Below are positions 49,550 through 62,472 of a DNA stretch of 64,000 bases, piece by piece. The stretch covers positions 2,688,001 to 2,752,000 of the forward strand of contig OZ244905.1 of assembly GCA_965221695.1 (NCBI GenBank). Reading direction: 5' to 3'. The translations under genes were made by a program, and so were the position numbers. Below the pieces are notes generated by a model. It was not told where the DNA came from and made no database searches. It was given only the letters and a program-made list of their open reading frames with translations. The DNA comes from Gammaproteobacteria bacterium. Its GTDB lineage: Bacteria; Pseudomonadota; Gammaproteobacteria; Eutrophobiales; Eutrophobiaceae. Position 1 is the first letter of the stretch. Each line of letters begins with the position of its first letter.

Positions 49550-49643
49550 TTCCGCAGCTTTGCCAACCGTTCTATGCGGTTGCCCTGCGCAGCGATGCAG
49601 GGATAATGTGCTGTACCGCATAATCAGCTACAATAACCAGCCC

Positions 49644-49730
49644 GGAGAGGTGCCAGAGTGGTTGAATGGGGCAGACTCGAAATCTGTTGTACGCGTCAGC
49701 GTACCGTGGGTTCGAATCCCACCCTCTCCG
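49644..49730 (+). tRNA. tRNA-Ser(CGA)
   Basis: GGAGAGG acceptor, GAGTGG D loop, anticodon loop CT-CGA-AA, long variable arm, GTTCGAATCCC; CCA not encoded directly. Confidence 0.95.
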
Positions 49731-50087
49731 TAACATTCATGCCACAGGCGCATCTGGCGCCTGTGGCATGAATGTTGATGCAATGGGGTTCGAACCCACG
49801 GTAATTAAATACGGGTTCGACAAATTCGCTGGGAGCGAATTTGAACAGCGTAGCTGGCCCCGGAGGGGCAAACTACATGGATGTAGTTTGTAATCCCACC
49901 CTCTCCGTAACATTCATGGCACAGGCGCTTCTGTCGCCTGTGCCATGAATGTTGATGCAATGGGGTTCGAACCCACGGTAATTAAATACGGGTTCGACAA
50001 ATTCGCTGGGAGCGAATTTGAACAGCGTAGCTGGCCCCGGAGGGGCAAACTACATGGATGTAGTTTGTAATCCCACCCTCTCCGCCA
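49731..50087 (+). repeat. two 177-bp tandem tRNA-linked repeats, each ending in the tRNA 3' end
   Basis: aatcccaccctctccg ends at 49730, 49907 and 50084 (the last followed by CCA); units near-identical with internal hairpins. Confidence 0.92.
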
Positions 50088-50088
50088 T

Positions 50089-51279
50089 CTAATAGTCCGG
50101 TAAAGTCCGGAGTCTTCCAAGCGCTTCAATGAAATGTGCTAGTGACAGGATGGTTGTGTCCTGGCTGCCGGGGAATGTATCTTCGCCAGTGTAAACAACA
50201 AATTTCTGTTTTACCTTTAAGTCTTCACAGGCCATGTGAAAGCCTTTTTTCAAGGTTGGAGTTCGGCTTGCTTTGATCTCAACGGCCCAGTATTCATCAA
50301 GACCAAACTCAATTACCAAATCAATTTCTGCCCCAGCAGATGTGCGATAGAAAAACGGATGAGCGCTTGAAGGTAAGGCGTTAATAATGGTCTCAATGAC
50401 AAACCCCTCCCAGCTTTTTCCGAATATAGGATGCCCCAACAAAGCTTCATAATTCGGAATTTGCAGCAAGGCATGCACAAGACCGCTATCGCGTACATAG
50501 GTACGTGGTGATTTCACCAGCCGTTTTTTGACGTTCCCATGCCAAGGCTCTAGCCTGCGAACCAATAACAAATCAACCATGAGGTCCAGATATCGACTAA
50601 CGGTGACACTCTCTACGCCAAGAGAGCTTGCGAGTTTTGACGCGTTCAGTAGTTCACCTTGTGTATGGGCAAGCATGGTCCAAAAGCGCATCAAGGTCGT
50701 TGCTGGAATTCTTGGTCCTAGCTGAGGGATGTCTCGTTCCAGATAGGTGCGAATAAAATTCTGCCGCCACTGGTGACTGGCCGCATCATCTTCAGCGGCA
50801 TAGCTGTCGGGAAACCCACCACGTATCCAGAGCTTTTGTAAGGGCTCTCCGGATGTTTCTTCAATTTCAAAAAGGTTTAAGCCAGTCAGTTCAGAGTAAT
50901 GAATGCGGCCAGCAAGGCTCTCAGAGCTTTGTTTTAGCAACTCATTGGTTGCCGATCCTAAAACAAGAAAGCGTCCGTTTCCGCGCCCCTCACGACGTCT
51001 GGCATCAATGATTCCGCGCAGTGACATAAACAAATCAGGGTAGCGTTGGACCTCATCGAGAATGACCAGCTTATCTGCATGTAGTTCTAGATAGTGGGCA
51101 GGGTCTTTGAGCTTTTGGAAATCCTCTGGGTTCTCGAGATCCAAATAAACAGATGGTTGCCCTTTGGCGATCTCATGGGCAAGCGTTGTCTTGCCAATCT
51201 GGCGCGGGCCAAGAATGGCAACAGCCGGATTTTGACTGAGACTTTTGATGATTTTCTGTGTAAGCTCTCTTTCATACAT
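50089..51279 (-). CDS. AAA_14 ATPase + DUF4143 protein
   Basis: LGPRQIGKTTL, ILDEVQ, LGS, ESLAGRI, RGGFP, KRLVKSP..Y.RDSG, YRT..GAEIDLV, EIK. Confidence 0.9.
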   Translation of the reverse strand: MYERELTQKIIKSLSQNPAVAILGPRQIGKTTLAHEIAKGQPSVYLDLENPEDFQKLKDPAHYLELHADKLVILDEVQRYPDLFMSLRGIIDARRREGRGNGRFLVLGSATNELLKQSSESLAGRIHYSELTGLNLFEIEETSGEPLQKLWIRGGFPDSYAAEDDAASHQWRQNFIRTYLERDIPQLGPRIPATTLMRFWTMLAHTQGELLNASKLASSLGVESVTVSRYLDLMVDLLLVRRLEPWHGNVKKRLVKSPRTYVRDSGLVHALLQIPNYEALLGHPIFGKSWEGFVIETIINALPSSAHPFFYRTSAGAEIDLVIEFGLDEYWAVEIKASRTPTLKKGFHMACEDLKVKQKFVVYTGEDTFPGSQDTTILSLAHFIEALGRLRTLPDY

Positions 51280-51659
51280 GCTAGCAATACTAACACAAAA
51301 TATTAAATATGCAAGGTAAATGTTTTTGTGGTGATCTGTTTCCAATGAAGGCAAAGCGGGATTAGAACCCGCGATACGGTACCGTGTTCACAACAAAAAC
51401 CGGCGCTTGGCGAGGAAGGTGTACAGGCGGGTGGTGAACAAGTCGCCGGTACGGCGAACTTTGCGAGGCACAAACCTCTTATCACCCAATGTAATTCGGT
51501 TTGTATAGTCCGCAACATCCGTAATTGGTTTTGAAAATCCTGTGTCTATGGACAACCCCCCCATACTTGATTAGCATAAGTCATAAGGAGGACCTATCGT
51601 GAACGTTGATTTCGTGACAAAGCGCCAGTCTGACAATCTCATGCAAATGCCGACCATCC

Positions 51660-52067
51660 ATGTCCAGGATTCGTTGTTATAGTATCGGTCGAGACCCCTC
51701 CGCATCCATCGTACTGCGTCATGAGACGGTGTCGCGCAGGCATGCAGAGTTGATTCCCGTATCCGGCGGGCAGGTATACGTCACGGATTGCGCCAGCGCC
51801 TGCGGGACTTTCATCGATAAGGGCAGGCGCTGGGAGAGGCTTACCCAGGATTTCGTCGGCGCAGGCGGCAGGGTGCGTTTCGGCGAGGTTGAGGTCAGCG
51901 TGCAGAGTCTGCTGGCGGACATTGCCCGCTTGCCTGCCGGCGGTGGAACGGGTCCCGGCGGTTCGGCGGAGCCCGGCGGTACCCCAGGCGCCGATAAGAA
52001 GAAACATGTGGATGCCGGCCGCGGGGTCATGCGCGACCCGGAAACGGGCGAGCCGATTCCCATGTAA
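51660..52067 (+). CDS. small soluble FHA-domain protein
   Basis: IGRD...VSRRHAEL...D..S..GT; Gly/Pro-rich tail. Confidence 0.85.
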   Translation: MSRIRCYSIGRDPSASIVLRHETVSRRHAELIPVSGGQVYVTDCASACGTFIDKGRRWERLTQDFVGAGGRVRFGEVEVSVQSLLADIARLPAGGGTGPGGSAEPGGTPGADKKKHVDAGRGVMRDPETGEPIPM

Positions 52068-52082
52068 TCGGACAGACAGACC

Positions 52083-52856
52083 ATGAACCAGAGAATGAGG
52101 ATATTCATAGGGGCGCTGGGCGCGGGCGTGATCTTCATCGGCCTGCTCAGCCTGTTTTTCTCCGAAGGTTTCTTCGCCGACTTCCTGCTGGACCGGAATT
52201 CGAAGTTCATGCCCTACCCGGTCACGATACAGAATATCATGTGGCTGGTGTTCTTCATCGGGGCGGGAGAATTGCTGTCGCGCTACCTGCAGACGGACCG
52301 GGAAATCAGCCAGATCCGCCTGGGACTGTTGCCGGAGGACAGCACAACCCTATTGCGCAAGCAAGATCTGGGCGGCGTGTACCAGCGCGTCAAGGAAACC
52401 ATGCACCCGGCGCCGGGCGCTGCGGAGGATTCCTATTTCCTGCAACGCCTGCTGTCCCGTTGTATCCTGCAGTTCCAGGTCAGCGGCGCCATTGATAAGG
52501 CAAACAACATGTTCAACTCCAGCCTGGAGTTGTTCCAGCACGAGGTCGAGCTGAGGTACAATGCCATTCGCTATATCGTCTGGCTGATCCCGACCCTGGG
52601 GTTCATCGGCACCGTGGTCGGCATCGCGCTGGCGCTCAGCAACGCCGGCAGCGTCGACAACTTCCAGGACCCCACCTTGCTGAAACAGCTTACCCAGAGT
52701 CTCGGCGTAGCGTTCTTTACCACCTTGCTGGCCTTGCTGCAATCCGCGGCGCTGATGTTCGCGCTGCATGTCGTACAAGGACAGGAGGAAGCGTCGCTGA
52801 ACCGGATAGGGCAGTATTGCCTGGATAACCTGATTAACCGGTTGTACGAGACTTGA
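52083..52856 (+). CDS. MotA/TolQ/ExbB proton-channel family protein
   Basis: N-terminal TMs; WLIPTLGFIGTVVG and LGVAFFTTLLAL match the ExbB/TolQ TM motifs. Confidence 0.88.
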   Translation: MNQRMRIFIGALGAGVIFIGLLSLFFSEGFFADFLLDRNSKFMPYPVTIQNIMWLVFFIGAGELLSRYLQTDREISQIRLGLLPEDSTTLLRKQDLGGVYQRVKETMHPAPGAAEDSYFLQRLLSRCILQFQVSGAIDKANNMFNSSLELFQHEVELRYNAIRYIVWLIPTLGFIGTVVGIALALSNAGSVDNFQDPTLLKQLTQSLGVAFFTTLLALLQSAALMFALHVVQGQEEASLNRIGQYCLDNLINRLYET

Positions 52857-53098
52857 TGGGGGTCGCCTGCGCGAGACAAATCGGCAGGACAGCCGATTTG
52901 CGCAGCGACTGCTGCCCGCAGGGTTGTATCCAGGGAAGGATGCAATGAGTGACGGAAGGAGAGAGGAATGACGGGTGGGTTCAAGAATGACGGTTAAGGG
53001 GCGAAGGGAGGTGTCGGCAAGTGGGTGTCGGCAAGTTGAACGCAGGGTGGTTTTCTGTTAAATTTTCATCAACCGCAACACCAGAAGGGGAGGACATC

Positions 53099-53758
53099 AT
53101 GCCGGTAAAACGCGATGCGGACGGGAACATCATAAAGGAACAGACAAGAACTACCGGAGTGGGTGATCCGGTGTTGCCGACCTTGGGGCGCTCCACTGTC
53201 GGCGCCACGGTCGGCCCCGGCAGGTCTCCCGAGACCAACCCCGGCCAGTCATCGGGTTATGAGGCCCAGACGGTGCTGGCAGGTTCGCCCCGTGTCGCGG
53301 AAGGGGAAGCCAGGACCCGGATCTACCGGCCCGGCAGGACGGGGCGGCAACAGCCGGAGACACCGGCTCCAGGTACGGGCGCTGAGGACGCGACGTCCTC
53401 TGCCATGGACGACCCGCCCGTAGGCTGGCTGGTCGTCGTCAGTGGGCCGGGACAGGGGAACTACATGGCCGTCGGCAACGGTTCGAATTCAGTCGGACGC
53501 GATGAGCGCGAGCGAGTGCGCGTGGATTTCGGTGACGAGTTGATCTCCCGCAGCGACCATTCAACGATCACCTACGATCCCAGGGGTAAGAAGTTTTACC
53601 TGCAGCACGGCGCCGGAAAAAACCTCACTTACCTGGAAGGCAAACCTGTCCTGGCGCCGACCGAACTGCCCGGGTTTTCCCGGATCACGATTGGGAACAC
53701 CGAATTGCTGTTCATCCCGCTCTGTTGCGATCAGTTTGACTGGGACGACTACACGTAA
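53099..53758 (+). CDS. FHA-domain protein with disordered Thr-rich N-terminus
   Basis: PVGWLVVVSGPG.G, N.VGR, D..ISR..H..I.YD, N.TY; RBS ggggagg before ATG 53099. Confidence 0.85.
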   Translation: MPVKRDADGNIIKEQTRTTGVGDPVLPTLGRSTVGATVGPGRSPETNPGQSSGYEAQTVLAGSPRVAEGEARTRIYRPGRTGRQQPETPAPGTGAEDATSSAMDDPPVGWLVVVSGPGQGNYMAVGNGSNSVGRDERERVRVDFGDELISRSDHSTITYDPRGKKFYLQHGAGKNLTYLEGKPVLAPTELPGFSRITIGNTELLFIPLCCDQFDWDDYT

Positions 53759-53767
53759 CAGGTCGTT

Positions 53768-54751
53768 ATGAATGCCCTCAAGCAGTGGGTGTCGGGAGAG
53801 CAGATCCAGGGAGACCGAAATTACCAGGAAGACTATTTCTCGCTCAGCCTGCTTTCCCAGGGCCGGGAACCTCCGGATGAAGACTGCCTGCTGCTCGTGC
53901 TGGCCGACGGCATGGGCGGACATGCCGGCGGCGCCGTTGCCAGCGAGACGGTAGTCAAGGCATTCCAGGAGGGCTTCAACCGCGATGCAACCGGGATCGC
54001 AGAGCGTTTCAGCGCCGGCATCGACACCGCCAACAACGCCGTCAGGGAAAAACAACAGGCCGATCCGGAACTGTCCGAGATGGGTTGCACCCTGGTGGCC
54101 GCGCTGGTGGTCGGGTCGACCCTTTACTGGACCAGCGTCGGCGATTCCATACTGTGGCTGTGCCGGCAGGGACATTTGCAGAGATTGAATGCGGACCATT
54201 CCATGAAACCGCTGTTGCTGGACCTGGTCGAATTGGGCAGGATGACCGAAGAAGAGGCGCTGAGCGATTACCGGATCAACCAGCTACGCTCGGCCATTTT
54301 CGGCGAGGAGGTTCAGCTGATTGACATGAACGCGGACGGTTTCCAACTGGAGAGTGGTGATCTCGTTTTACTGGCCAGCGACGGCCTGGAAACCCTGTCC
54401 GGGCAAAGCATGACAGATGTCATCGAGGCCCGCGCGGACGATGCCGATGAGATAGTGAACGCCCTGCTTGACGCAGTTGCCATGGCGGGGGTGCGCGGGC
54501 AGGACAATACTACGGCGCTGGCGTACCGGGTCGGCCAGGGGCATGATTCACTGCACGGCGTACTGGCGGGCATCAGCACAGATGACAAGGATGCCGTATT
54601 CGAGCAGCAAGTGAAACCCTCCCGAACCTGCGAGTTGCGCCCGGCACAGGAACAGGAAGCGCCGGCAAAGCGGCCCGGCATCTTCGCCCGAGCCATACAT
54701 GCCTTCTCCGGTAGACCGGCGCGTCAAGACACTCGTGACGGGAAGCAATGA
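53768..54751 (+). CDS. PP2C/PPM Ser/Thr protein phosphatase
   Basis: G.R.YQED, LADGMGGH, MGCTL, VGDS, DHS, LASDGL, DNTT. Confidence 0.93.
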   Translation: MNALKQWVSGEQIQGDRNYQEDYFSLSLLSQGREPPDEDCLLLVLADGMGGHAGGAVASETVVKAFQEGFNRDATGIAERFSAGIDTANNAVREKQQADPELSEMGCTLVAALVVGSTLYWTSVGDSILWLCRQGHLQRLNADHSMKPLLLDLVELGRMTEEEALSDYRINQLRSAIFGEEVQLIDMNADGFQLESGDLVLLASDGLETLSGQSMTDVIEARADDADEIVNALLDAVAMAGVRGQDNTTALAYRVGQGHDSLHGVLAGISTDDKDAVFEQQVKPSRTCELRPAQEQEAPAKRPGIFARAIHAFSGRPARQDTRDGKQ

Positions 54752-56487
54752 CAGCAATACGAGCATTGATGTTGTGTGCGCTTCTGGTGTACCTGCCGGC
54801 AGGCAACAGCCAGACGACCGGTGATGACGCAGAAGCGCCGGCTGTTTCCTCTGCCACTGCACCCGCTGTGCCTGCTGATACGCCCGTGACAACGGAGGAC
54901 CCAGCGCAAATAGCCGCCCCCTCAGCGGATACAGCCACGGCGATTGCCGCGGTTGTGCAGGTTCCCGAACCCGTAGATTTCAGTGCGGTGCGGCCCCACC
55001 TGGTGGTCATAAGAGAAGGGATGGACGCCGCCGCACGTCGCACGCCGGGATTCAGCATCAGCGACCAGGGCCATATCCTGACTTATTCCGGAGAATTACG
55101 CGCCCGGGAGTACTACCTTGTCTCGGTTGCAGGCGGTCAGGTCTTTACTGCTGCGCTGCTTGATGAAGATGAAGACACCGGCCTCATGCTACTGAGGATC
55201 GCAGGAGAAGGGCACGGCCTCACCGCCCTGAAGTTTGCCAGAACGACGCTGGAAGCCGCGGTGCCGCTCTATGCAGTACGGTTCGACCCGGTGCGGGCGG
55301 AGCCGTTCGTGCCCGTTCCCGGCACGGTCACGCGGTTGCCTGCAACGGATGAGGAGACACCGGCAATCGTGCATAATGCCCTGTTCAATACGGCGGCCGC
55401 CGGGACGCCCTTGTTCAACCGTTGTTACCAGGCGGTCGGTGTCAGCGTGCTGCAAAGGAAGGGCTTCCCGCCGAGAACTCTCGATCCCCAACAACAGGGT
55501 AGCGCCATCTCCCTGGCGGCCTACTCGTTGAGCGTGATCCTGGCGTCGGCCAACCTGACCCTGCCCATCGCTGAGGCGGAGTGCCAGAGTGCGGAGGAGG
55601 AGGCGCGACTGCGGCTGGAACAACTTCAGCAGGAAAAAGAGGCGGAGCGGGCAAATGCCGAAGCCCTGGCCCTTGCCGCCGCGGAGGAAGCGCTGCGCAG
55701 GGAGGCGGTAATGAACCTGGAGCGGGAAGCAGCGCAACAGCAGCTTGAACAGGCGCGCCAAGAGAAAGAAGCGGCCCTGCAGGCGGAGCGGGCAAGTGCC
55801 GAAGCCGATAAGCGCCGTTTGGAAGAAGAAGCGCAGCAACAACTTGAACAGGCGCAGCAGGAGAAGGAACAGGCCCTGCAGGCACAACAGCAGGAGAATG
55901 AACAGGCTCTGCAGGTGGAGCGGCAGGAGACCGAACAGGCCCGGCGGGAAGCCCGGCAGGCGACGCATACGGGGAAACAGATCCTGCTGTTATCGCTAGC
56001 GGTCGTCTTCGTCCTGGCGCTGGTCTTCTTCCTGGTCCTGCGCGCCAGGCGTAAACACCTGCAACGCGTGGAACAGGAAAAACAGCAGTTCGCCCAGGAC
56101 CTGGACAGGGCAGAGGCAGACCTGTCAGACGCCTCCGAGAGGGAGCAGCTACGCGCCGGCGCCCCCGACGTGTTTATCGAGGGTGTCACGCCGCAGAACG
56201 AGCGCATCGCCCTGAAAATACCCGGCGCCTCACTGGTCAAACCCTCAGGTGTCACGGTAGGCAGGAGTCCCTCCGAATCCGAGTTCGTCATCAATCACGA
56301 ACAGGTCTCCCGCCGCCATTTCCGCCTCATGCTGGTGTCTGGGCAGGTGATGATCGAAGATATGGGCTCGACCAATGGGACCGTCGTGAACGGCGTGCCC
56401 CTCAGTCCCGGCGCCCGGCAGACGCTGGGCGACGGCAGCCGCATGCAGGTCGGGCGCGTGACGATGACGGTGCGGATAGGTCTCTGA
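54748..56487 (+). CDS. membrane protein: signal peptide, degenerate trypsin-like domain, coiled coil, TM, FHA
   Basis: GF.IS..GHILT, LLRI, H.A..N....G.PLFNRC..AVGV; Q/E-rich coil; TM ILLLSLAVVFVLALVFFLV; VGR...VSRRH...DMGSTNGT. Confidence 0.82.
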   Translation: MTAIRALMLCALLVYLPAGNSQTTGDDAEAPAVSSATAPAVPADTPVTTEDPAQIAAPSADTATAIAAVVQVPEPVDFSAVRPHLVVIREGMDAAARRTPGFSISDQGHILTYSGELRAREYYLVSVAGGQVFTAALLDEDEDTGLMLLRIAGEGHGLTALKFARTTLEAAVPLYAVRFDPVRAEPFVPVPGTVTRLPATDEETPAIVHNALFNTAAAGTPLFNRCYQAVGVSVLQRKGFPPRTLDPQQQGSAISLAAYSLSVILASANLTLPIAEAECQSAEEEARLRLEQLQQEKEAERANAEALALAAAEEALRREAVMNLEREAAQQQLEQARQEKEAALQAERASAEADKRRLEEEAQQQLEQAQQEKEQALQAQQQENEQALQVERQETEQARREARQATHTGKQILLLSLAVVFVLALVFFLVLRARRKHLQRVEQEKQQFAQDLDRAEADLSDASEREQLRAGAPDVFIEGVTPQNERIALKIPGASLVKPSGVTVGRSPSESEFVINHEQVSRRHFRLMLVSGQVMIEDMGSTNGTVVNGVPLSPGARQTLGDGSRMQVGRVTMTVRIGL

Positions 56488-57201
56488 ATGAACCGTTCAT
56501 TGTGGTGCGGTTTGATATTTCTCAGCCTCTGGGGTCTGAGTTACCAGGGTGGCGCGGATATTGATGACCAGGAAGAACATTTCAGGGAGGAGCAGGGGGC
56601 GCAACAGGATCAGGAAGCCGCGCGACGGGAACGCAAGCGTGCCCGACAGGCAGAACAGGAGGCGCTCCGGCAACAGGAAGCGGCGCGCCAGCGCGTGGTT
56701 CAGCAAAATCTGTTCGTAACCTTGCTGGCTCTGTTGACCCTGCTGGCCTTGATACTGGCCTTGAGAAAACCCCGGCAGGCCATTGTTTGGGCCGCCGGCC
56801 ACGCAATCGAACCACTCAGTCGGCGCTTCAAACCGGCAGGGCGCTTGCCCGCGCCGGGCGCAGCCCGCGCCGGGACGGCAAACGTCGTACTTACGGGCTT
56901 TGACAGCCGGGGCAAACCGGTGAATATCCCGTTGCCGGAGGAGGAACTGGATCGGAAACGGGGCGGTTTCACCCTGGGGCGCCATCACCTGCTGGTCGAT
57001 ACGGCGCTGGACGATGACCGGATATCGAAGCGCCATGCCCGGTTCACCCGCAACGGTCACGGCTATTTTATCGAAGACCTCAATTCGAGAAACGGCACTG
57101 TGATCAACGGTGAGCAACCCTGCGCGCCGTTCAAACCCATGCGAATCAGGCCCGGCGACACGGTGCGGCTAGGCGGCATGGAGTTGCTCGTATCGGCCTG
57201 A
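56488..57201 (+). CDS. membrane protein: signal peptide, short coil, TM, FHA
   Basis: TM LFVTLLALLTLLALILAL; LGR...ISKRHARF...EDLNSRNGT. Confidence 0.85.
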   Translation: MNRSLWCGLIFLSLWGLSYQGGADIDDQEEHFREEQGAQQDQEAARRERKRARQAEQEALRQQEAARQRVVQQNLFVTLLALLTLLALILALRKPRQAIVWAAGHAIEPLSRRFKPAGRLPAPGAARAGTANVVLTGFDSRGKPVNIPLPEEELDRKRGGFTLGRHHLLVDTALDDDRISKRHARFTRNGHGYFIEDLNSRNGTVINGEQPCAPFKPMRIRPGDTVRLGGMELLVSA

Positions 57202-57214
57202 TTCGGAAGCGCCC

Positions 57215-58018
57215 GTGAGGCTACGCAGCAAGGAGATCAATGTCTTCAACATGTCCGCGCTGGACCTGTTCGCCTCCGCGCTGGGTGCGTTTATCCTTAT
57301 TTCCGTGGTCTTGTTTCCCTATTTTCCCAACACCGGCGATTCCCAGGAACGGGTGGACGAGGTCAAGGCGCAACTGGCTGAGGCCAATGCGCGATTGGAG
57401 GAAACCAGCGCCGAACTGGAGCAGGTCCGCGCCCGGTTGAACCCCGCCCTGGAACAAGAACTGCAGGTCGCACGAGAACAACTCGGCGCGTGCCAGGCCC
57501 GACTCCGGGAGGCAGAGGCCGCGCTAAACGCCTGCCAGGTTGAACAGCGAGAAGTTGCATCATTGGATTCCGCGCTGGGCGCCTGCGAGAACCGCAACCG
57601 GCAGATGCAACAGGAACTGCAATCCTGCGAGAATGAATTGCGCAAGAAATTCGTGCTGGTCGTGATCAGCTGGGGCACGCCGGACGATATCGACCTGCAC
57701 GTGATCGATCCGCAAGGCCGGGAGTTCTTCTACGGGCGCAAACACATCCCCGGTTCCCTGGCAAAACTGGAAGAGGACAACACCAGAGGTCCCGGCAATG
57801 AGATCTGGCTGCACCCGGCCGCGGAGCCGGGCGCCTACGAGGTTTACTACAAATATTACGATGGATCAACCGGCAACGTGCAGGTGCGCGGCGCGGCGCT
57901 GACGCCCCGCGGCAGGACGGAGTTGCCGGACATCACTCTGCGGTACGTGGGTGAGAAGCCCCTGGTGGCAACCATTTTCGTCAATGAGGATGGCAACGCT
58001 GAGGTGAGGGCATGGTAA
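57215..58018 (+). CDS. single-pass ExbD/MotB-like partner with Cys-containing coiled coil and DUF2135/YfaP-like C-terminal domain
   Basis: EINVFNMSALDLFASALGAFILI (Asp in TM); LxxC heptads; ISW...DDIDLHVIDP, D.TRGPG.E. Confidence 0.65.
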   Translation: MRLRSKEINVFNMSALDLFASALGAFILISVVLFPYFPNTGDSQERVDEVKAQLAEANARLEETSAELEQVRARLNPALEQELQVAREQLGACQARLREAEAALNACQVEQREVASLDSALGACENRNRQMQQELQSCENELRKKFVLVVISWGTPDDIDLHVIDPQGREFFYGRKHIPGSLAKLEEDNTRGPGNEIWLHPAAEPGAYEVYYKYYDGSTGNVQVRGAALTPRGRTELPDITLRYVGEKPLVATIFVNEDGNAEVRAW

Positions 58019-58149
58019 CGCGGCGGGAGGGGAATTTTCCGCATTGACACGATTTCCCAGGCCCCCTTAGAATACGGTTTAACCGGTGACACAATTTAAT
58101 TCTGTCACCGGATTTACGGGGCAAACATAACAAACAAAGACGGCCTTCC

Positions 58150-60756
58150 ATGAACTCCGACCACCTGCATGCCCTACCGCCCGGCACGCGCCTTGAAGAA
58201 TTTCGGCTGGAGGCGCAGGTGGGCGCCGGCGGGTTCAGCATCACCTATCGGGCCTATGACGAATTACTGGACAAGGTGGTGGCCGTCAAGGAATACCTGC
58301 CGCGGGATTTCGCCACCCGCACCGCCGGCAATACAGTGGCGCCCATATCCGATGCGGACGCCCGGGATTACCAGTGGGGCCTGACCCGGTTCCTGGACGA
58401 GGCCCGCACGCTGGCCAGGTTCGACCATCCGCATCTCAACAAGGTGCGTCGTTTCTTCGAGGCCAACGGCACGGCCTACATGGCGCTGGAGCATATCCAT
58501 GGCGAGACCCTGGCTACCCGGTTAAGCCGCGAGCGGCGCTTGCCGGAAACGGACCTGCTGCGCCTGCTGGAGGAAGTGTTATCGGGACTTGCTGTGATTC
58601 ACGAGGCTGGCTACGTGCACCGGGACATCAAACCGGGCAACCTGATGCTGCGCGAGGAAGACGACAGCATAGTGCTGCTGGACTTCGGCGCCGCGCGCCA
58701 GGCAGTGGGCCAGAGTTCCAAGTCAATCACCAGCATCCTGACACCGGGCTATGCCCCGATAGAGCAGTACGAAAGCAAAGCGGACGCCGTCGGACCGTGG
58801 AGTGATATCTATGCATTGGGGATGGTGGCGTACAAGTGCATCAGCGGCGCGGGTGACGGGGAGTTGCCCGATGCCGTGACCCGGGCCCGCTCCCAACGCA
58901 AAGGGGGTAAGGACCTGGCGATGGCGGCGGAGGTGGGCCAGAGCAGGTACAGTGCGAAGCTGCTGGCGGCGATAGACTGGGCCATCGAGGTGGATGAGGA
59001 GTCCCGGCCGCAGGGGGTGGGTGAGTGGAGTGAGGCGCTGGTGGGGAGCGGGAGCAAGCAACGAGCCGCCAAACCGGCGCCTAATACAACGGCACGGTCT
59101 GCAAAGGCTCCGGCCACCGAGCGCCAGGGTATGAATTGGTACAGCATGGCCCTGACCGCGGTGATAGTGGTGTTACTGGGAGCGAGCGCCTGGCAGGGCT
59201 GGCGGCTGTATCAGGGGATGCCCGGGCTTGGCGTAGACGGCGCCGCCACGGCAGTTGAGTCGCAGGCAAACGCACAGGGCAAAGCAGAGTTAGCAGCAGA
59301 ACCCTATGCACAAACACCAACGGTAACGCCAGAACAAGGCTCCGGGCCTGACGCGCCCACACTGGCCGCGCCGGTTGAGGAAGACGAAGTCGCCCGGCTG
59401 CTGGCTGCAGCCGAAGCCGACTTGGAGGCAAGACGCCTGACCAGTCCGCAGGGGAACAACGCCTGGGAGAAGTACCGGCGGGTATTGGGTTTATCCTCCG
59501 CGCACCCCGAGGCCATAGCGGGGATGGAGCGGGTGATCGGGAGTTACATGGACCTGTTCGGCGCTGTTCTGGAGCAGGAGGATTTTGACCAGGCGGAGGG
59601 GTATCTCTCACGCATCCGCGACCTGCACCCGGATTCGCCACTCTTGTTGACGGGGAAAGAACGTTTGGAACAAGCCCGGCAGGCTCATGTCGAGCGGTTG
59701 GCGGAAGAAGAGCGCCTGCGCCAGGCCGAGGAAGCGGCGCGCCAGGCGGAACAGGAGCGCCAGCGAATAGCACAGGAAATCGAGAGACACTGGCAGTCCT
59801 TTGAGACGGCAATGCAGCAAGACAAATTGGACCGGGCGGAAGACAGTCTCAACCTCGTGCGGGAGTTGGACTCGGACGCGCCGGGGTTAGCGGATGCGGA
59901 ACGACGCCTGTCACAGGCGCGGGAAGCATCCCGGCAGAAGGCGCTGCAGTATGCCGGTGAGATGGTCTCCATCCCTGCCGGCAGTTTCCGCATGGGGGAC
60001 CTGACAGGCGCTGACGCTGAGAAACCGGTCCACAGTGTGCGAGTCGCGGCCTTCAGCATGGGCAAGTATGAGGTAACGGTGGGCCAGTTCCAGCGGTTTG
60101 TGGAGGCGACGGGGTACCTCACGGATGCGGAGCGTTATACGGACGGCAAAGCAGGTTGTTCTGTCTATACAACAAAAAGATGGAAGTACACCGAGGGCAA
60201 GAGTTGGCGCAATCCGGGGTTTTCAGTCGGAGACAAGCACCCGGTGGTGTGCGTGAACTGGAATGATGTGCAGGCGTTCGTGAAGTGGCTGAACGGCAAT
60301 ACCGATGGGGATTTCCGCTTGCCGACCGAGGCGGAGTGGGAGTATGCGGTGCGCGCCGGGAGCAGTACGAAGTATCATTTCGGCAATGATGAGTCACAAC
60401 TGTGCCGGTTTGCCAGCCATGCGGACAGCGGGACGGATATTGATTGGAAAAACAAGTCCTGCTCGGACGGTGTGGGCGAACGCACCGCCGAAGTGGGCCG
60501 TTACCAGCCGAACAGTTTCGGGCTGTATGACATGCACGGCAATGTCTGGGAGTGGGTGACAGATTGCTGGAATGAGAGTTATGTGGGCGCCCCGACAGAC
60601 GGTAGCGCCTGGACGAATGGGGACTGCAGCCGGCGCGTCATTCGGGGCGGGGCCTGGGACAGCTCACCGTGGAACCTGCGTTCCGCGCACCGTTACGGGA
60701 GCTCCCGTTCGAATCACAGCTCTTATCTGGGCTTTCGCTTGGCCCGGGACAACTGA
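58150..60756 (+). CDS. Ser/Thr kinase-TM-helical linker-FGE-sulfatase (SUMF1) domain fusion
   Basis: GAGGFS, VAVKEY, HRDIKPGN, DFG, TPGYAPIEQ; TM; F.MG, EVT..QF, HPVV.V.W.D, RLPTEAEWEYA.RAG, GLYDMHGNVWEW, RGGAW, GFR. Confidence 0.93.
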   Translation: MNSDHLHALPPGTRLEEFRLEAQVGAGGFSITYRAYDELLDKVVAVKEYLPRDFATRTAGNTVAPISDADARDYQWGLTRFLDEARTLARFDHPHLNKVRRFFEANGTAYMALEHIHGETLATRLSRERRLPETDLLRLLEEVLSGLAVIHEAGYVHRDIKPGNLMLREEDDSIVLLDFGAARQAVGQSSKSITSILTPGYAPIEQYESKADAVGPWSDIYALGMVAYKCISGAGDGELPDAVTRARSQRKGGKDLAMAAEVGQSRYSAKLLAAIDWAIEVDEESRPQGVGEWSEALVGSGSKQRAAKPAPNTTARSAKAPATERQGMNWYSMALTAVIVVLLGASAWQGWRLYQGMPGLGVDGAATAVESQANAQGKAELAAEPYAQTPTVTPEQGSGPDAPTLAAPVEEDEVARLLAAAEADLEARRLTSPQGNNAWEKYRRVLGLSSAHPEAIAGMERVIGSYMDLFGAVLEQEDFDQAEGYLSRIRDLHPDSPLLLTGKERLEQARQAHVERLAEEERLRQAEEAARQAEQERQRIAQEIERHWQSFETAMQQDKLDRAEDSLNLVRELDSDAPGLADAERRLSQAREASRQKALQYAGEMVSIPAGSFRMGDLTGADAEKPVHSVRVAAFSMGKYEVTVGQFQRFVEATGYLTDAERYTDGKAGCSVYTTKRWKYTEGKSWRNPGFSVGDKHPVVCVNWNDVQAFVKWLNGNTDGDFRLPTEAEWEYAVRAGSSTKYHFGNDESQLCRFASHADSGTDIDWKNKSCSDGVGERTAEVGRYQPNSFGLYDMHGNVWEWVTDCWNESYVGAPTDGSAWTNGDCSRRVIRGGAWDSSPWNLRSAHRYGSSRSNHSSYLGFRLARDN

Positions 60757-60846: not shown

Positions 60847-62472
60847 TCACCGCATCGATTTTTGCAGTACCGAGAAGTTTCTTACCCAAGGCTCTAGTTT
60901 GCGTATTTCATCGGGCAAATCATCTATAGCTCTTTCGGCAAGCTCATAGTCATGGTACAGACCATAAAACACGCGATAGTAAGTTATCTGCTCGATCTCG
61001 ATCCTGATATAGGCAATCTGCTGTGTCAGGTTATTCTGTTTGAGGAAATTTAGCACACGTTCTTCACTGGAAAAGCTGGCCAGTTGCAAAGTGTAGTGAT
61101 ACGGAGATTGTGCGGCGACCCAGTCTTCCCGCCTGATAGCGGTCTCACCGGCGTCAGAGGCATCCTCGCCAGCCAACTCATCTTCATCGGAAATGACCTC
61201 GCTGGTGGTCGCAACCAGATCGGAAATGGCCTCTGGTACAGCCGCAATGTATTCCGCTGTCGCTGGTACAGGGCTGGTGTCCGCGGTCTCTGCAACAGTC
61301 TCCGGCGTTTCCTCCTCCGCGGCGTTCAGCGCGATCTCGGCGGTGTCCTCATCCGTCTGAGCAGCTACGATGGTCGGCGTTTCTTCGACAGCAGGCGCTG
61401 TGTCTTCTGCTTCAGTTGCCTCAGCAGCAGTTTGAGCAAGGCTGGTCTCCGCGGTCTCTGCAACGATCTCCGGCGCTTCCTTCTCCGCATCGAACAGTGC
61501 GGTCTCGGCTGTGTCTTCGTCCGACTGAGCGGCTATGGTCGGCGCTTCCTCCTGCGTGACGCTCAGTGCGGTCTCGGCAGCGTCCTCATCCGGCTGAGCA
61601 GCTATAATCGGTGTTTCCTCGACGGCAGGTACCGTATCTTCTTCAGTTGCCTGCGCAAAGGGTTCTGTTGTTTCCTGCATTGCAGGCGCTTGCGATACGG
61701 TCGTGTCCTCTTCAATATCGACATAAGCAAGTCTTTGTAAGCTTTCTTCTGCCTGTTGCAGACCCCCGGCGGCCGCGCGTTGATACCATTTTTTCGCCTC
61801 CACCAGGTCCTTTTCTACCGCGTAACCATTTTCATAGTACACGCCCATGTTGAATTGCGCCTGTGGGACATCGGCGTCAGCGGCTTTTCTGAACCAGAGT
61901 AGCGCTACATCATAGTCCTGGTCGACGCTGTAACCGAAGGCGTACATGACAGCCAGGCTGTATTGCGCATTTCCGTTTCCCTGCTCTGCTGCTTGGCGGA
62001 AAAGCCGGGTGGCTGTTTCATAATCCCGGGTAATCTGCTCACTGCCGTTGAAGTACAAAAGGCCAAGGTTGAACAGCGCATCCGATTGCCCGGCCGCCGC
62101 GGCCAGCTTCCACCATTGCATGACTTTAGACGGGTCTTTTGTGACACCATCACCGTGCAAGTACTTGACGCCGAGCTCGAATTGGGCGTCGGGGTGCCCT
62201 TGATCCGCCGCAAGCAAGTACCATTTTACTGCTTCGGCAGAATCTGCGTTAACGCCATGGCCATAGTCATACATGAGGCCAAGCATTCTTTGCGCATCCG
62301 AGTTGCCGTCCTCAGCCAGTGGTTGCAGTATTTCGTAGGCTTTTTCGTAGTCTTTGGCCAGGTAGGCCTGTCTCGCCGTTTCAAAAGATTGCGCCAGCAC
62401 AGGGCCGGAAAATACCAACCCCAATAACAGGAAAGGAATTAACTTGGTCAGCATAAACCGTATCTTTGACAT
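60847..62472 (-). CDS. exported SEL1-repeat protein with acidic repeat linker and SPOR domain
   Basis: Signal peptide; about five A..LG..Y..G...D...A..W...AA..G repeats; E/A/T-rich repeats; YTLQLAS...YRVFYG.Y...A..A...LP...PWVR. Confidence 0.85.
   Translation of the reverse strand: MSKIRFMLTKLIPFLLLGLVFSGPVLAQSFETARQAYLAKDYEKAYEILQPLAEDGNSDAQRMLGLMYDYGHGVNADSAEAVKWYLLAADQGHPDAQFELGVKYLHGDGVTKDPSKVMQWWKLAAAAGQSDALFNLGLLYFNGSEQITRDYETATRLFRQAAEQGNGNAQYSLAVMYAFGYSVDQDYDVALLWFRKAADADVPQAQFNMGVYYENGYAVEKDLVEAKKWYQRAAAGGLQQAEESLQRLAYVDIEEDTTVSQAPAMQETTEPFAQATEEDTVPAVEETPIIAAQPDEDAAETALSVTQEEAPTIAAQSDEDTAETALFDAEKEAPEIVAETAETSLAQTAAEATEAEDTAPAVEETPTIVAAQTDEDTAEIALNAAEEETPETVAETADTSPVPATAEYIAAVPEAISDLVATTSEVISDEDELAGEDASDAGETAIRREDWVAAQSPYHYTLQLASFSSEERVLNFLKQNNLTQQIAYIRIEIEQITYYRVFYGLYHDYELAERAIDDLPDEIRKLEPWVRNFSVLQKSMR

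Follow-up and report, generated by a model that had tools for sequence, protein, structure and literature searches.

The gene cluster

The DNA analysed here, hereafter called the window, is a stretch of 64,000 nucleotides (nt) from a gammaproteobacterium of the family Eutrophobiaceae (assembly GCA_965221695.1, contig OZ244905.1, positions 2,688,001 to 2,752,000 of the forward strand). The genome, G000, is a single contig of 3.54 Mb and is 96.85% complete. From position 51,660 to 60,756 of the window lies a cluster of eight genes, g1 to g8, in which a TolQ/ExbB-like membrane protein and a protein with a conserved aspartate helix accompany a Ser/Thr kinase, a PP2C phosphatase and four FHA proteins. 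A sequence-only reading of this region had listed eight co-directional open reading frames (ORFs) with one overlap and one abutment, and all of this was found as it described, with the same coordinates: g4 and g5 overlap by 4 nt (54748/54751), and g5 and g6 abut (56487/56488). The genes are listed below (aa, amino acids; TM, transmembrane).

51660 to 52067, plus strand: g1, small soluble FHA protein of 135 aa (Pfam FHA, E 3.2e-13)
52083 to 52856, plus strand: g2, divergent TolQ/ExbB-type channel subunit of 257 aa, predicted 'A' subunit of a 5:2 motor (PF01618)
53021 to 53758, plus strand: g3, FHA protein with an N-terminal motif, a disordered linker and a C-terminal FHA domain (Pfam FHA, E 4.4e-6)
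53768 to 54751, plus strand: g4, PP2C Ser/Thr phosphatase of 327 aa (PP2C_2, E 2.7e-13)
54748 to 56487, plus strand: g5, 579 aa, with a signal peptide, dead trypsin-like domain, coiled coil, TM helix and cytoplasmic FHA domain (Trypsin_2, 28.4 bits, cut-off 27.6; FHA, E 2e-16)
56488 to 57201, plus strand: g6, 237 aa, with a signal peptide, short periplasmic stretch, TM helix and cytoplasmic FHA domain (FHA, E 3.2e-17)
57215 to 58018, plus strand: g7, predicted 'B' subunit of 267 aa, with a TM helix, coiled-coil stalk and TerD-like head (helix motif; AlphaFold2 (AF2) model)
58150 to 60756, plus strand: g8, Hanks-type Ser/Thr kinase of 868 aa, with a TM helix, periplasmic helical region and FGE-sulfatase-fold domain (Pkinase, E 1.7e-31; FGE-sulfatase, E 1.1e-67)

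The Pfam matches uphold the gene order and the identities given earlier for the FHA, MotA/TolQ/ExbB, PP2C, protease-FHA and kinase-FGE proteins. The placement of g7 in the ExbD/MotB family does not hold, as only its membrane helix fits.

Conservation across genomes

The evidence shows a real cluster that is both conserved and mobile. Scanning a single genome of each species for homologues of g2 gave 255 loci; the best 80 of them, with 10-kb flanks, were annotated by means of domain profiles derived from the window. In 69 of these 80 loci, from five or more phyla, the g2 homologue has a g7-type helix gene no more than 10 kb away, and the whole set of FHA, PP2C, Ser/Thr kinase, protease-FHA and g7 helix genes is present in 40. 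The sequence-only reading had proposed to check whether homologues of the genes at 52083 and 57215 co-occur with FHA, PP2C and kinase genes; the pair does stay together across phyla, and the signalling genes accompany it in half of the loci. The phyla arrange the genes differently but keep the membership: the protease-FHA and B-subunit genes stand ahead of g1/g2 in Latescibacterota and after them in Gammaproteobacteria. No further gene family recurs across phyla in the annotated loci.

The smallest form, a bare pair of g2 and g7-helix genes with no other gene of the system, occurs in 18 loci, all from Gemmatimonadota; locus L085 likewise holds a bare pair, and four further loci hold the pair with a kinase only. 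Upstream of the TolQ-like gene in the Gemmatimonadota bare-pair loci (L052 to L099, some 20 closely related loci) stand two ORF families of ~383 and ~589 aa, the latter with a peptidoglycan (PG)-binding-like stretch; they may reflect lineage synteny or be extra parts of a minimal system. Of the 23 genomes of the window's genus, nine have g2 as well as the g7 helix, 12 have neither, and the two that are discordant come from fragmented assemblies (270 and 760 contigs).

The putative motor subunits g2 and g7

g2 matches the MotA_ExbB family (PF01618) at 41.7 bits (cut-off 22.9; E 1.1e-10) over residues 132 to 238. Its AF2 model, with a predicted local distance difference test score (pLDDT) of 83.2, has an extra N-terminal helix (H3-25). 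The PDB rows that Foldseek listed for this model are all TolQ, ExbB, ZorA or MotA chains, that is, 'A' subunits of 5:2 motors; the best is TolQ 8vlw_B (TM-scores TMq 0.62 and TMt 0.71), and all rows have E-values of 1.5e-3 or weaker. Five residues are invariant in 15 g2 sequences (P170, T171, T177, T213 and T214), all within the last two TM helices. g2 is also among the two weakest of eight PF01618 matches in the genome, and the seven other genes imply that canonical Tol and Ton motors are encoded elsewhere. As modelled, g2 belongs to the TolQ/ExbB/MotA family as a very divergent member with a TolQ/ExbB fold, and it is predicted to form the pentameric channel of a 5:2 motor with ion flow. A 4:2 complex prediction (four copies of g2 residues 120 to 257 with two of g7 residues 1 to 60) scored 0.04 against a mark of 0.32 with the controls not folded, which is evidence neither way; 4:2 is also not the stoichiometry expected. 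The g2 family counts 2323 proteins at E <= 0.001, almost none of them named.

The N-terminal residues 1 to 43 of g7 contain a helix (..S-A-L-D-L-F-A-S-A-L-G-A-F-I-L-I..) with an invariant aspartate, D17. Its core motif, ..LDLFASA(L/M)GAF.., is nearly unchanged in 72 of the 72 ORFs listed, which come from Gammaproteobacteria, Alphaproteobacteria, Binatia, Latescibacterota, Gemmatimonadota and Acidobacteriota; we take this pattern to resemble the MotB/TolR helix. Residues 44 to 143 are modelled as one long helix, a coiled-coil stalk of ~100 residues, and residues from about 145 to 267 form a head that is modelled as a confident beta-sandwich (AF2 block pLDDT 87 to 97). In a structural search with g7, the sole rows at Z >= 8 are TerD 2qz7_B (Z 10.5, rmsd 3.3 Å over 121 residues) and TerD 2kxt (Z 9.1), the next rows being coiled coils that match the stalk (Z <= 7.8); Foldseek returned TerD 3ibz at E 1.6e-4. 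The modelled head thus has the TerD beta-sandwich fold. Membership of the ExbD/MotB family was considered and rejected for g7, since it shares only the Asp transpore helix and its periplasmic part is a coiled coil followed by the TerD-like sandwich.

Sequence profiles say little about the head. The Pfam TerD family gives no match to it at E <= 10; DUF2135 matches are weak (6 of 18 head members, best E 0.015), as is a subtilisin C-terminal jelly-roll row in a profile search of the PDB (E 0.22), and DUF2135 leads from the ESM Atlas reach 0.87 to 0.88, under the trust level of 0.9. An acidic and glycine-rich motif (D-x-D ... E-D-N-T-x-G-P-G-N-E-I) is conserved in the head; it may correspond to the Ca2+ motif of TerD, and the head is a candidate Ca2+-binding domain. 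The head varies on a constant helix, being TerD-like in 22 loci and vWA in the others; Pfam confirmed a vWA domain in three Latescibacterota g7-type proteins that our own vWA profile had missed. At E <= 0.001 the g7 family comprises 941 proteins, with none named among the best 120.

Kinase, phosphatase and FHA proteins

The motifs of both enzymes are intact, as had been claimed: g8 has VAVK (K47), HRD (157) and DFG (178), while g4 has the metal-binding motifs DGMGG47, GDS125, SDG204 and DN246. Neither protein reaches the cut-off of its NCBIfam match, which is Stp1_PP2C for g4 (140 bits against 230) and, as the best one, PvdO for g8 (194.8 bits against 500). One hydrophobic helix separates the kinase of g8 from its periplasmic part, the last domain of which has the FGE-sulfatase fold (PF03781); the stretch past R-G-G-A-W, where the catalytic cysteine pair of FGE might be expected, contains no Cys. 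Across the full loci, the number of kinase ORFs has a median of 1 and a maximum of 7, and the periplasmic domains of the kinases vary between FGE, Sel1, ankyrin, PG_binding_1, PPC, PEGA and RDD. FGE-bearing genes are found in 14 of 21 full TerD-type loci versus 7 of 26 full vWA-type loci, a descriptive count in which many loci are close kin. Loci L045, L040, L036 and L095 are among those where as many as 7 kinase ORFs, with ankyrin or Sel1 repeats in their extracytoplasmic parts, form an array beside the system.

An FHA gene of the g1 type stands directly upstream of a g2-type gene in 53 loci, the window included. The C-terminal tail of g1 carries a conserved motif, R-x-P-x-T-G-E-(I/P)-I, and the pattern [T/S]-G-x-[I/V/L/P] is kept in 52 of the 53 g1 genes. 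FHA domains prefer phosphothreonine (pThr, pT) with Ile or Leu at +3, threonine followed by a hydrophobic residue at +3 being a classic FHA ligand. Our guess from the sequence is that T129 in the T-G-E-I tail is a candidate phospho-site. For g3, translation probably starts at the ATG at 53099 (M27), because conservation begins there in an alignment of 47 orthologues. From M27 it reads M-P-V-x-R-x-x-D-G-x-I-I, with D-G-x-[I/V] present in 42 of the 47; this is the pattern of the g1 tail with Asp replacing Thr, and it is followed by a low-complexity linker and then the FHA domain. To our eye the layout recalls GarA and OdhI, a type of protein with an N-terminal phospho-switch.

g5 and g6 both have signal-peptide-like N-termini and one hydrophobic helix ahead of a C-terminal FHA domain. 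The earlier statement that the trypsin-like domain of g5 is dead proved correct: all three catalytic residues are missing, with G, G and A in the triad columns. Protease-FHA genes usually come two to a locus. In 34 of the 34 loci with two or three of them, the first is triad-dead and at least one later gene keeps His-Asp-Ser; the g6 orthologues of these loci are 398 to 538 aa long with a Trypsin_2 domain and that triad, and the one in genome G009 (454 aa) has the protease domain as well. Judged by sequence against these orthologues, g6 has lost the protease domain that they carry. The pThr-binding residues of FHA domains (GR...SxxH...NG) are visible in both g5 and g6. The best NCBIfam matches of the FHA proteins are to FhaB/FipA and OdhI, all below cut-offs.

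Distribution, mobility and genomic setting

Of 400 Gammaproteobacteria genomes drawn evenly, 8 have the g2 family, as do 10 of the 23 genomes of the genus. In a tree of g2, the window sequence groups with three same-genus sequences and three titled Binatia (support 99), the vWA-type systems of the same genus fall inside a clade dominated by Latescibacterota, and the bare-pair loci form one clade (support 100). As far as sequence comparison goes, these data support a cluster that is accessory and moves horizontally. Two features lie just upstream of it.

49643 to 49731: tRNA-Ser(cga)
50089 to 51354, minus strand: DUF4143/AAA_14 ATPase gene

The sequence-only reading had regarded the cluster as accessory DNA downstream of the tRNA-Ser and the DUF4143 gene. 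The patchy family, the phylum-mixing tree and the variable slot after the tRNA agree with accessory DNA; the DUF4143 gene, however, is a separate insertion, because it is absent from relative G008, which is 98 to 99% identical and in which the cluster follows the DUF1015 gene after a gap of 686 nt. The G+C content is 0.58 to 0.64 in the cluster, 0.48 to 0.50 in the DUF4143 gene and 0.54 to 0.59 in the flanks. Against PADLOC, the DUF4143/AAA_14 gene matches the candidate defence family PDC-S01 (E 3.1e-95).

In the genus, a serA-like gene and a DUF1015 gene (with the tRNA-Ser where it was found) are syntenic, while the genes that follow differ: the cluster in G000 and G008, metabolic genes in G014, and in G001 a PIN-domain gene and an HTH_17 gene, which form a toxin-antitoxin-like pair, together with a DUF4172-Fic gene (L106, 4701 to 7530). 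G001 has its own copy of the cluster on another contig. The flanks in G008 are of housekeeping type (serA-like, DUF1015 and enolase-family genes).

Directly after the tRNA-Ser, at 49706 to 50084, stand two tandem copies of a 177-nt unit (95% identical). The tRNA 3' end, AATCCCACCCTCTCCG, recurs at the end of each unit, which makes three copies in total, and the units look like scars of repeated integration at the tRNA. Such copies are confined to 49706 to 50084, with none past the far end of the cluster; hence the cluster is not bounded by recognisable attachment (att) repeats. On the other side, a gene at 60847 to 62472 (minus strand) converges on g8 and encodes a Sel1-repeat and SPOR-domain protein, with 108-nt direct repeats inside the gene. 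Homologues of this protein (37 to 45% identity) lie a few kb after the tRNA-Ser or the DUF1015 gene in genomes without the cluster, and the gene is thus native flank and lies outside the system. A scan of the region for promoters and terminators gave site counts at chance level. One sigma-70-like near-consensus site (TTGACA, 18 nt, TAGAAT; 11/12) lies at 58044 to 58073, in the 131-nt gap before g8, although the regional total of such sites is that expected by chance.

Comparison with known systems

The closest described relatives of the motor core are pairs in which a TolQ-like gene is closely linked to one for a TM-tethered vWA protein while tolR and exbD are missing, reported in section 8 of PMC12204202 (Mol Biol Evol 2025). 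AlphaFold 3 models in that section, which are computational predictions, place a TolQ-like pentamer around a dimer of the Asp-helix-vWA protein, with the conserved-Asp helix inside the pentamer, and a gliding role is suggested there for the vWA transducers. By description, our loci share with those pairs a TolQ-like gene linked to a single-pass Asp-helix protein with the head fused to the axle, no tolR, exbD or motB, vWA heads in most relatives, and tandem heterologous B genes (in L031 and L033); the bare pairs match them. They differ from the pairs of that section in the window's TerD-like head on a long coiled coil, where a vWA domain is described, and in the kinase, PP2C and four FHA genes of half of the loci. 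The main text of PMC12204202 names neither kinase nor phosphatase, and 'FHA' occurs in it only inside 'FhaC'. Among the best 120 matches of a TM-vWA relative, Halioxenophilus, Sphingomonadales and Rhodospirillaceae are named and Idiomarina, the seed genus of the published family, is not.

The sequence-only reading had called the system undescribed. A motor core of a TolQ-like and an Asp-helix protein without TolR is known as the 2025 prediction for vWA-headed forms, so in this part the claim falls; for the coupling to a kinase, PP2C and FHA switch and for the TerD-like head it stands, as far as our searches reach. A literature search that took in few subscription journals and no supplements found no paper joining FHA, PP2C or kinase genes to a TolQ/MotA-type motor except for Agl-Glt of Myxococcus, where the FHA domain of GltG is modelled on the cytoplasmic face of the AglR pentamer in the accessible text of PMC11761067. 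That system is similar in bringing FHA domains to a TolQR-like motor via bitopic membrane proteins. Its topology, as described there, is the reverse (here the FHA domain is C-terminal and the periplasmic part N-terminal), and our cluster has a kinase and PP2C and no Glt outer-membrane components. The accessible text of a survey of non-flagellar MotAB relatives (PMC12505986) mentions neither FHA nor vWA. A vWA-kinase-FHA-PP2C operon is reported from Deinococcus (10.64898/2026.01.23.701218).

With TolQR, ExbBD and MotAB the cluster shares the PF01618 match and TolQ-like fold of g2 and the Asp helix of g7; it differs in lacking a periplasmic domain of the ExbD/TolR kind, a peptidoglycan-binding domain like that of OmpA and any TonB or TolA partner, and Pfam finds no ExbD-type gene in the window's cluster. 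The non-flagellar pair ZorAB of Zorya is likewise MotAB-like, with a long coiled coil and a place in accessory DNA, but the coiled coil of Zorya is the cytoplasmic tail of ZorA, whereas here it is a periplasmic stalk of the B subunit. Membership of Zorya was rejected: NCBIfam ZorA_4 scores 18.2 bits against 500, the PADLOC matches to ZorA2 (E 7.5e-6) and ZorB1 are both partial, and PADLOC matched none of ZorC, ZorD, ZorE, ZorF and ZorG, in line with the earlier statement that Zorya effectors are absent.

Two signalling systems also overlap with the cluster in parts. The threonine phosphorylation pathway of type VI secretion systems (T6SS) consists of PpkA, PppA, Fha1 and TagR. It has in common with our cluster a Hanks kinase in the membrane, a PP2C, a reader protein with FHA, and FGE-fold and vWA domains on the periplasmic side of the signalling layer; here, by contrast, the kinase itself carries the FGE domain, a vWA or TerD-like domain sits on the motor axle, the FHA proteins number four and a TolQ-like motor is present. 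In the TerY-P triad, as the accessible text of PMC10542128 presents it, a vWA protein (TerY), a PP2C and a Ser/Thr kinase form a proposed metal-sensing phospho-switch. The likeness is a metal-binding vWA (in relatives) or TerD-fold domain (here) beside PP2C and kinase; however, TerY-P is described as cytoplasmic, with a zinc ribbon/OB fold on the kinase, and our system is membrane-anchored and has FHA readers and a motor. TerY-P membership was rejected, as the window's cluster has no vWA domain, the kinase C-terminus is a TM helix and FGE domain, and PADLOC gives no TerY-P match.

Proposed mechanism and alternative explanations

On balance, we favour the view that the cluster encodes a TolR-less 5:2 envelope motor, with a stalked TerD-like or vWA head on its axle, under the control of a dedicated switch of Ser/Thr kinase, PP2C and FHA proteins. 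A pentamer of g2 would form the channel and a dimer of g7 the axle, with D17 in the MotB/TolR-like helix, and the coiled coil of g7 would project the TerD-like head (vWA in most relatives) into the periplasm. The motor could dispense with TolR, ExbD, TonB and TolA, since axle and force-transmitting arm are fused into one protein. g8 may sense the periplasm through its putatively non-catalytic FGE-fold domain, a part played in relatives by Sel1, ankyrin, PG-binding, PEGA, PPC or RDD domains. The signal would then run from an envelope cue to active g8 and on to Thr phosphorylation, for which the T-G-E-I tail of g1 (pT with Ile at +3) is the best candidate. The four FHA proteins would read pThr, with g1 and g3 soluble and the bitopic g5 and g6 linking a periplasmic protease-like domain to a cytoplasmic FHA domain. 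FHA docking could make the motor and the membrane FHA proteins assemble or release, and so switch force or rotation from the g7 head onto an outer-envelope partner and, in relatives, periplasmic proteolysis as well. The PP2C g4 would reset the system to rest. Candidate outputs are adhesion, envelope surveillance and defence.

We know of no dedicated set of Ser/Thr kinase, phosphatase and FHA proteins that runs MotAB, ExbBD, TolQR, GldLM, ZorAB or AglRQS. An operon that joins motor and phospho-switch would be a tractable case for the on/off control of 5:2 motors, and it would extend the recent idea of TolR-less motors with a force-transmitting head on the axle. More tentatively, we suggest as a possibility a new class of 5:2 rotary motor set by reversible Thr phosphorylation and acting as a mechano-chemical relay in both directions. 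Arrays of membrane kinases with swappable periplasmic sensors would write pThr, FHA proteins would read it and so engage the motor, and the motor would pull or turn a Ca2+-binding head (TerD-like or vWA) at the outer envelope, coupled in most lineages to a periplasmic protease. Such a class might be exchanged between phyla that share a habitat and may serve attachment to a host or matrix, or defence. If this is true, an ion-driven stator unit would here, for the first time, have a dedicated phospho-switch of eukaryote-like type.

Several points weigh against the motor-and-switch view. The E-values of g2 in Foldseek all exceed 1e-3, and a profile of 15 g2 orthologues searched against the PDB found no motor protein at E <= 1 and one unrelated chain. 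For g7, neither Pfam nor NCBIfam gives an ExbD, TolR, MotB or OmpA match at E <= 0.01 (Pfam returns coiled-coil noise only), and the PADLOC match of its residues 6 to 70 to ZorB1 is weak (E 3.8e-4). The data show composition, linkage and folds; the 5:2 stoichiometry, the ion flow, the phospho-sites, the direction of signalling and the physiological role are inferred, and the T-G-E-I site of g1 was picked, as a guess, from conservation. The window's copy has no active protease, with g5 dead and g6 truncated, which means that the output is something other than proteolysis or that this copy is in decay. As for linkage, the 80 loci are the best of 255 and many are close kin, so that their counts overstate independence; in 11 of the 80 the 10-kb flanks show no g7-type gene (four are full-length loci, and in the other seven the contig ends early). 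The motor and B-subunit genes of vWA-type relatives in the same genus are 9 to 30 kb apart, and tight operon linkage is therefore not universal.

Of the other explanations, an anti-phage or conflict system of the Zorya type is one that we consider unlikely. In such a system the motor would detect envelope damage or invasion, and the kinases, with a protease in relatives, would respond, for example by arresting growth through mass phosphorylation. The patchy occurrence among the sampled Gammaproteobacteria and within the genus, the tree that mixes phyla and so points to horizontal transfer, and a tRNA-Ser slot filled by PIN-HTH and Fic genes in G001 and by the PDC-S01 candidate here count in its favour; so do kinase arrays with varied sensor domains, and Zorya is itself a precedent for a MotAB-like defence motor. 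The kinase domain of g8 resembles the PD-T4-6 and MAD6 defence kinases in PADLOC, but these matches reflect the generic Hanks fold, and PADLOC gives no family for g1, g3, g4, g5 or g6 and gives only a sub-threshold likeness to ZorA/ZorB. Moreover, the conserved set lacks a nuclease, NTPase or other typical effector, the flanks in G008 are of housekeeping type and the G014 slot holds metabolic genes, and two copies on many chromosomes would be unusual, though possible, for defence. Rather improbable in our estimation is an adhesion or surface-motility machine, Agl-Glt-like in principle, in which an adhesive head, vWA or TerD-like, is pulled along by the motor and the FHA proteins are a static scaffold instead of phospho-readers. 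GltG does join FHA to a TolQR-like motor, with its FHA modelled on the pentamer (accessible text of PMC11761067), and vWA heads are adhesion modules; a gliding role for vWA transducers is suggested in PMC12204202. The NCBIfam GltG matches of our FHA domains, however, reach 15 to 24 bits against a cut-off of 650, and Glt-like outer-membrane or periplasmic genes do not recur in the loci. An intact kinase and PP2C beside FHA genes in at least 50 of the 80 loci argue for real phospho-signalling, as do the pThr-binding residues visible in g5 and g6.

It is also conceivable that two unrelated modules are adjacent by chance, with the kinase, PP2C and FHA proteins governing envelope growth in the manner of PknB, PstP, FhaA and FhaB. 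The sub-cut-off matches to FhaB/FipA and OdhI fit this, and the 18 bare pairs without signalling genes imply that the motor can work alone. We nevertheless hold such a coincidence to be very improbable, given that the genes are found together, in differing orders, in Gammaproteobacteria, Alphaproteobacteria, Binatia, Latescibacterota and Acidobacteriota, g1 adjoins g2 in 53 loci, the B-subunit gene lies between FHA and kinase genes, and no cell-division or peptidoglycan-synthesis genes recur in the loci. Finally, the cluster is almost certainly not the regulatory arm of a T6SS encoded elsewhere in the genome. Its parts do overlap with those of the threonine phosphorylation pathway, and g6 scores 38 bits (below the cut-off of 120) to TagH, TIGR03354; yet the G000 genome has no match to the sheath protein TssC/VipB (PF05943), for which the E. 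coli control was positive, and on this check, too, the sequence-only reading stands.

Further observations on the carrier genomes

Some chromosomes hold two copies of the whole system (L029/L067, L046/L061 and L062/L065); in one record the copies are ~30 kb apart, and in another two near-identical copies are ~200 kb apart. The full set is present in LSUCC0112 (L050), apparently a cultured strain, and for Halioxenophilus sp. WMMB6, apparently cultured too, the evidence is a TM-vWA relative of g7 only; cultured strains thus appear to carry components, which makes experiments possible. Latescibacterota, Gemmatimonadota, Binatia and Acidobacteriota are typical sponge-associated groups. The names of carrier genomes include Spongiihabitans and Poriferihabitaceae (L085, L095 and others).

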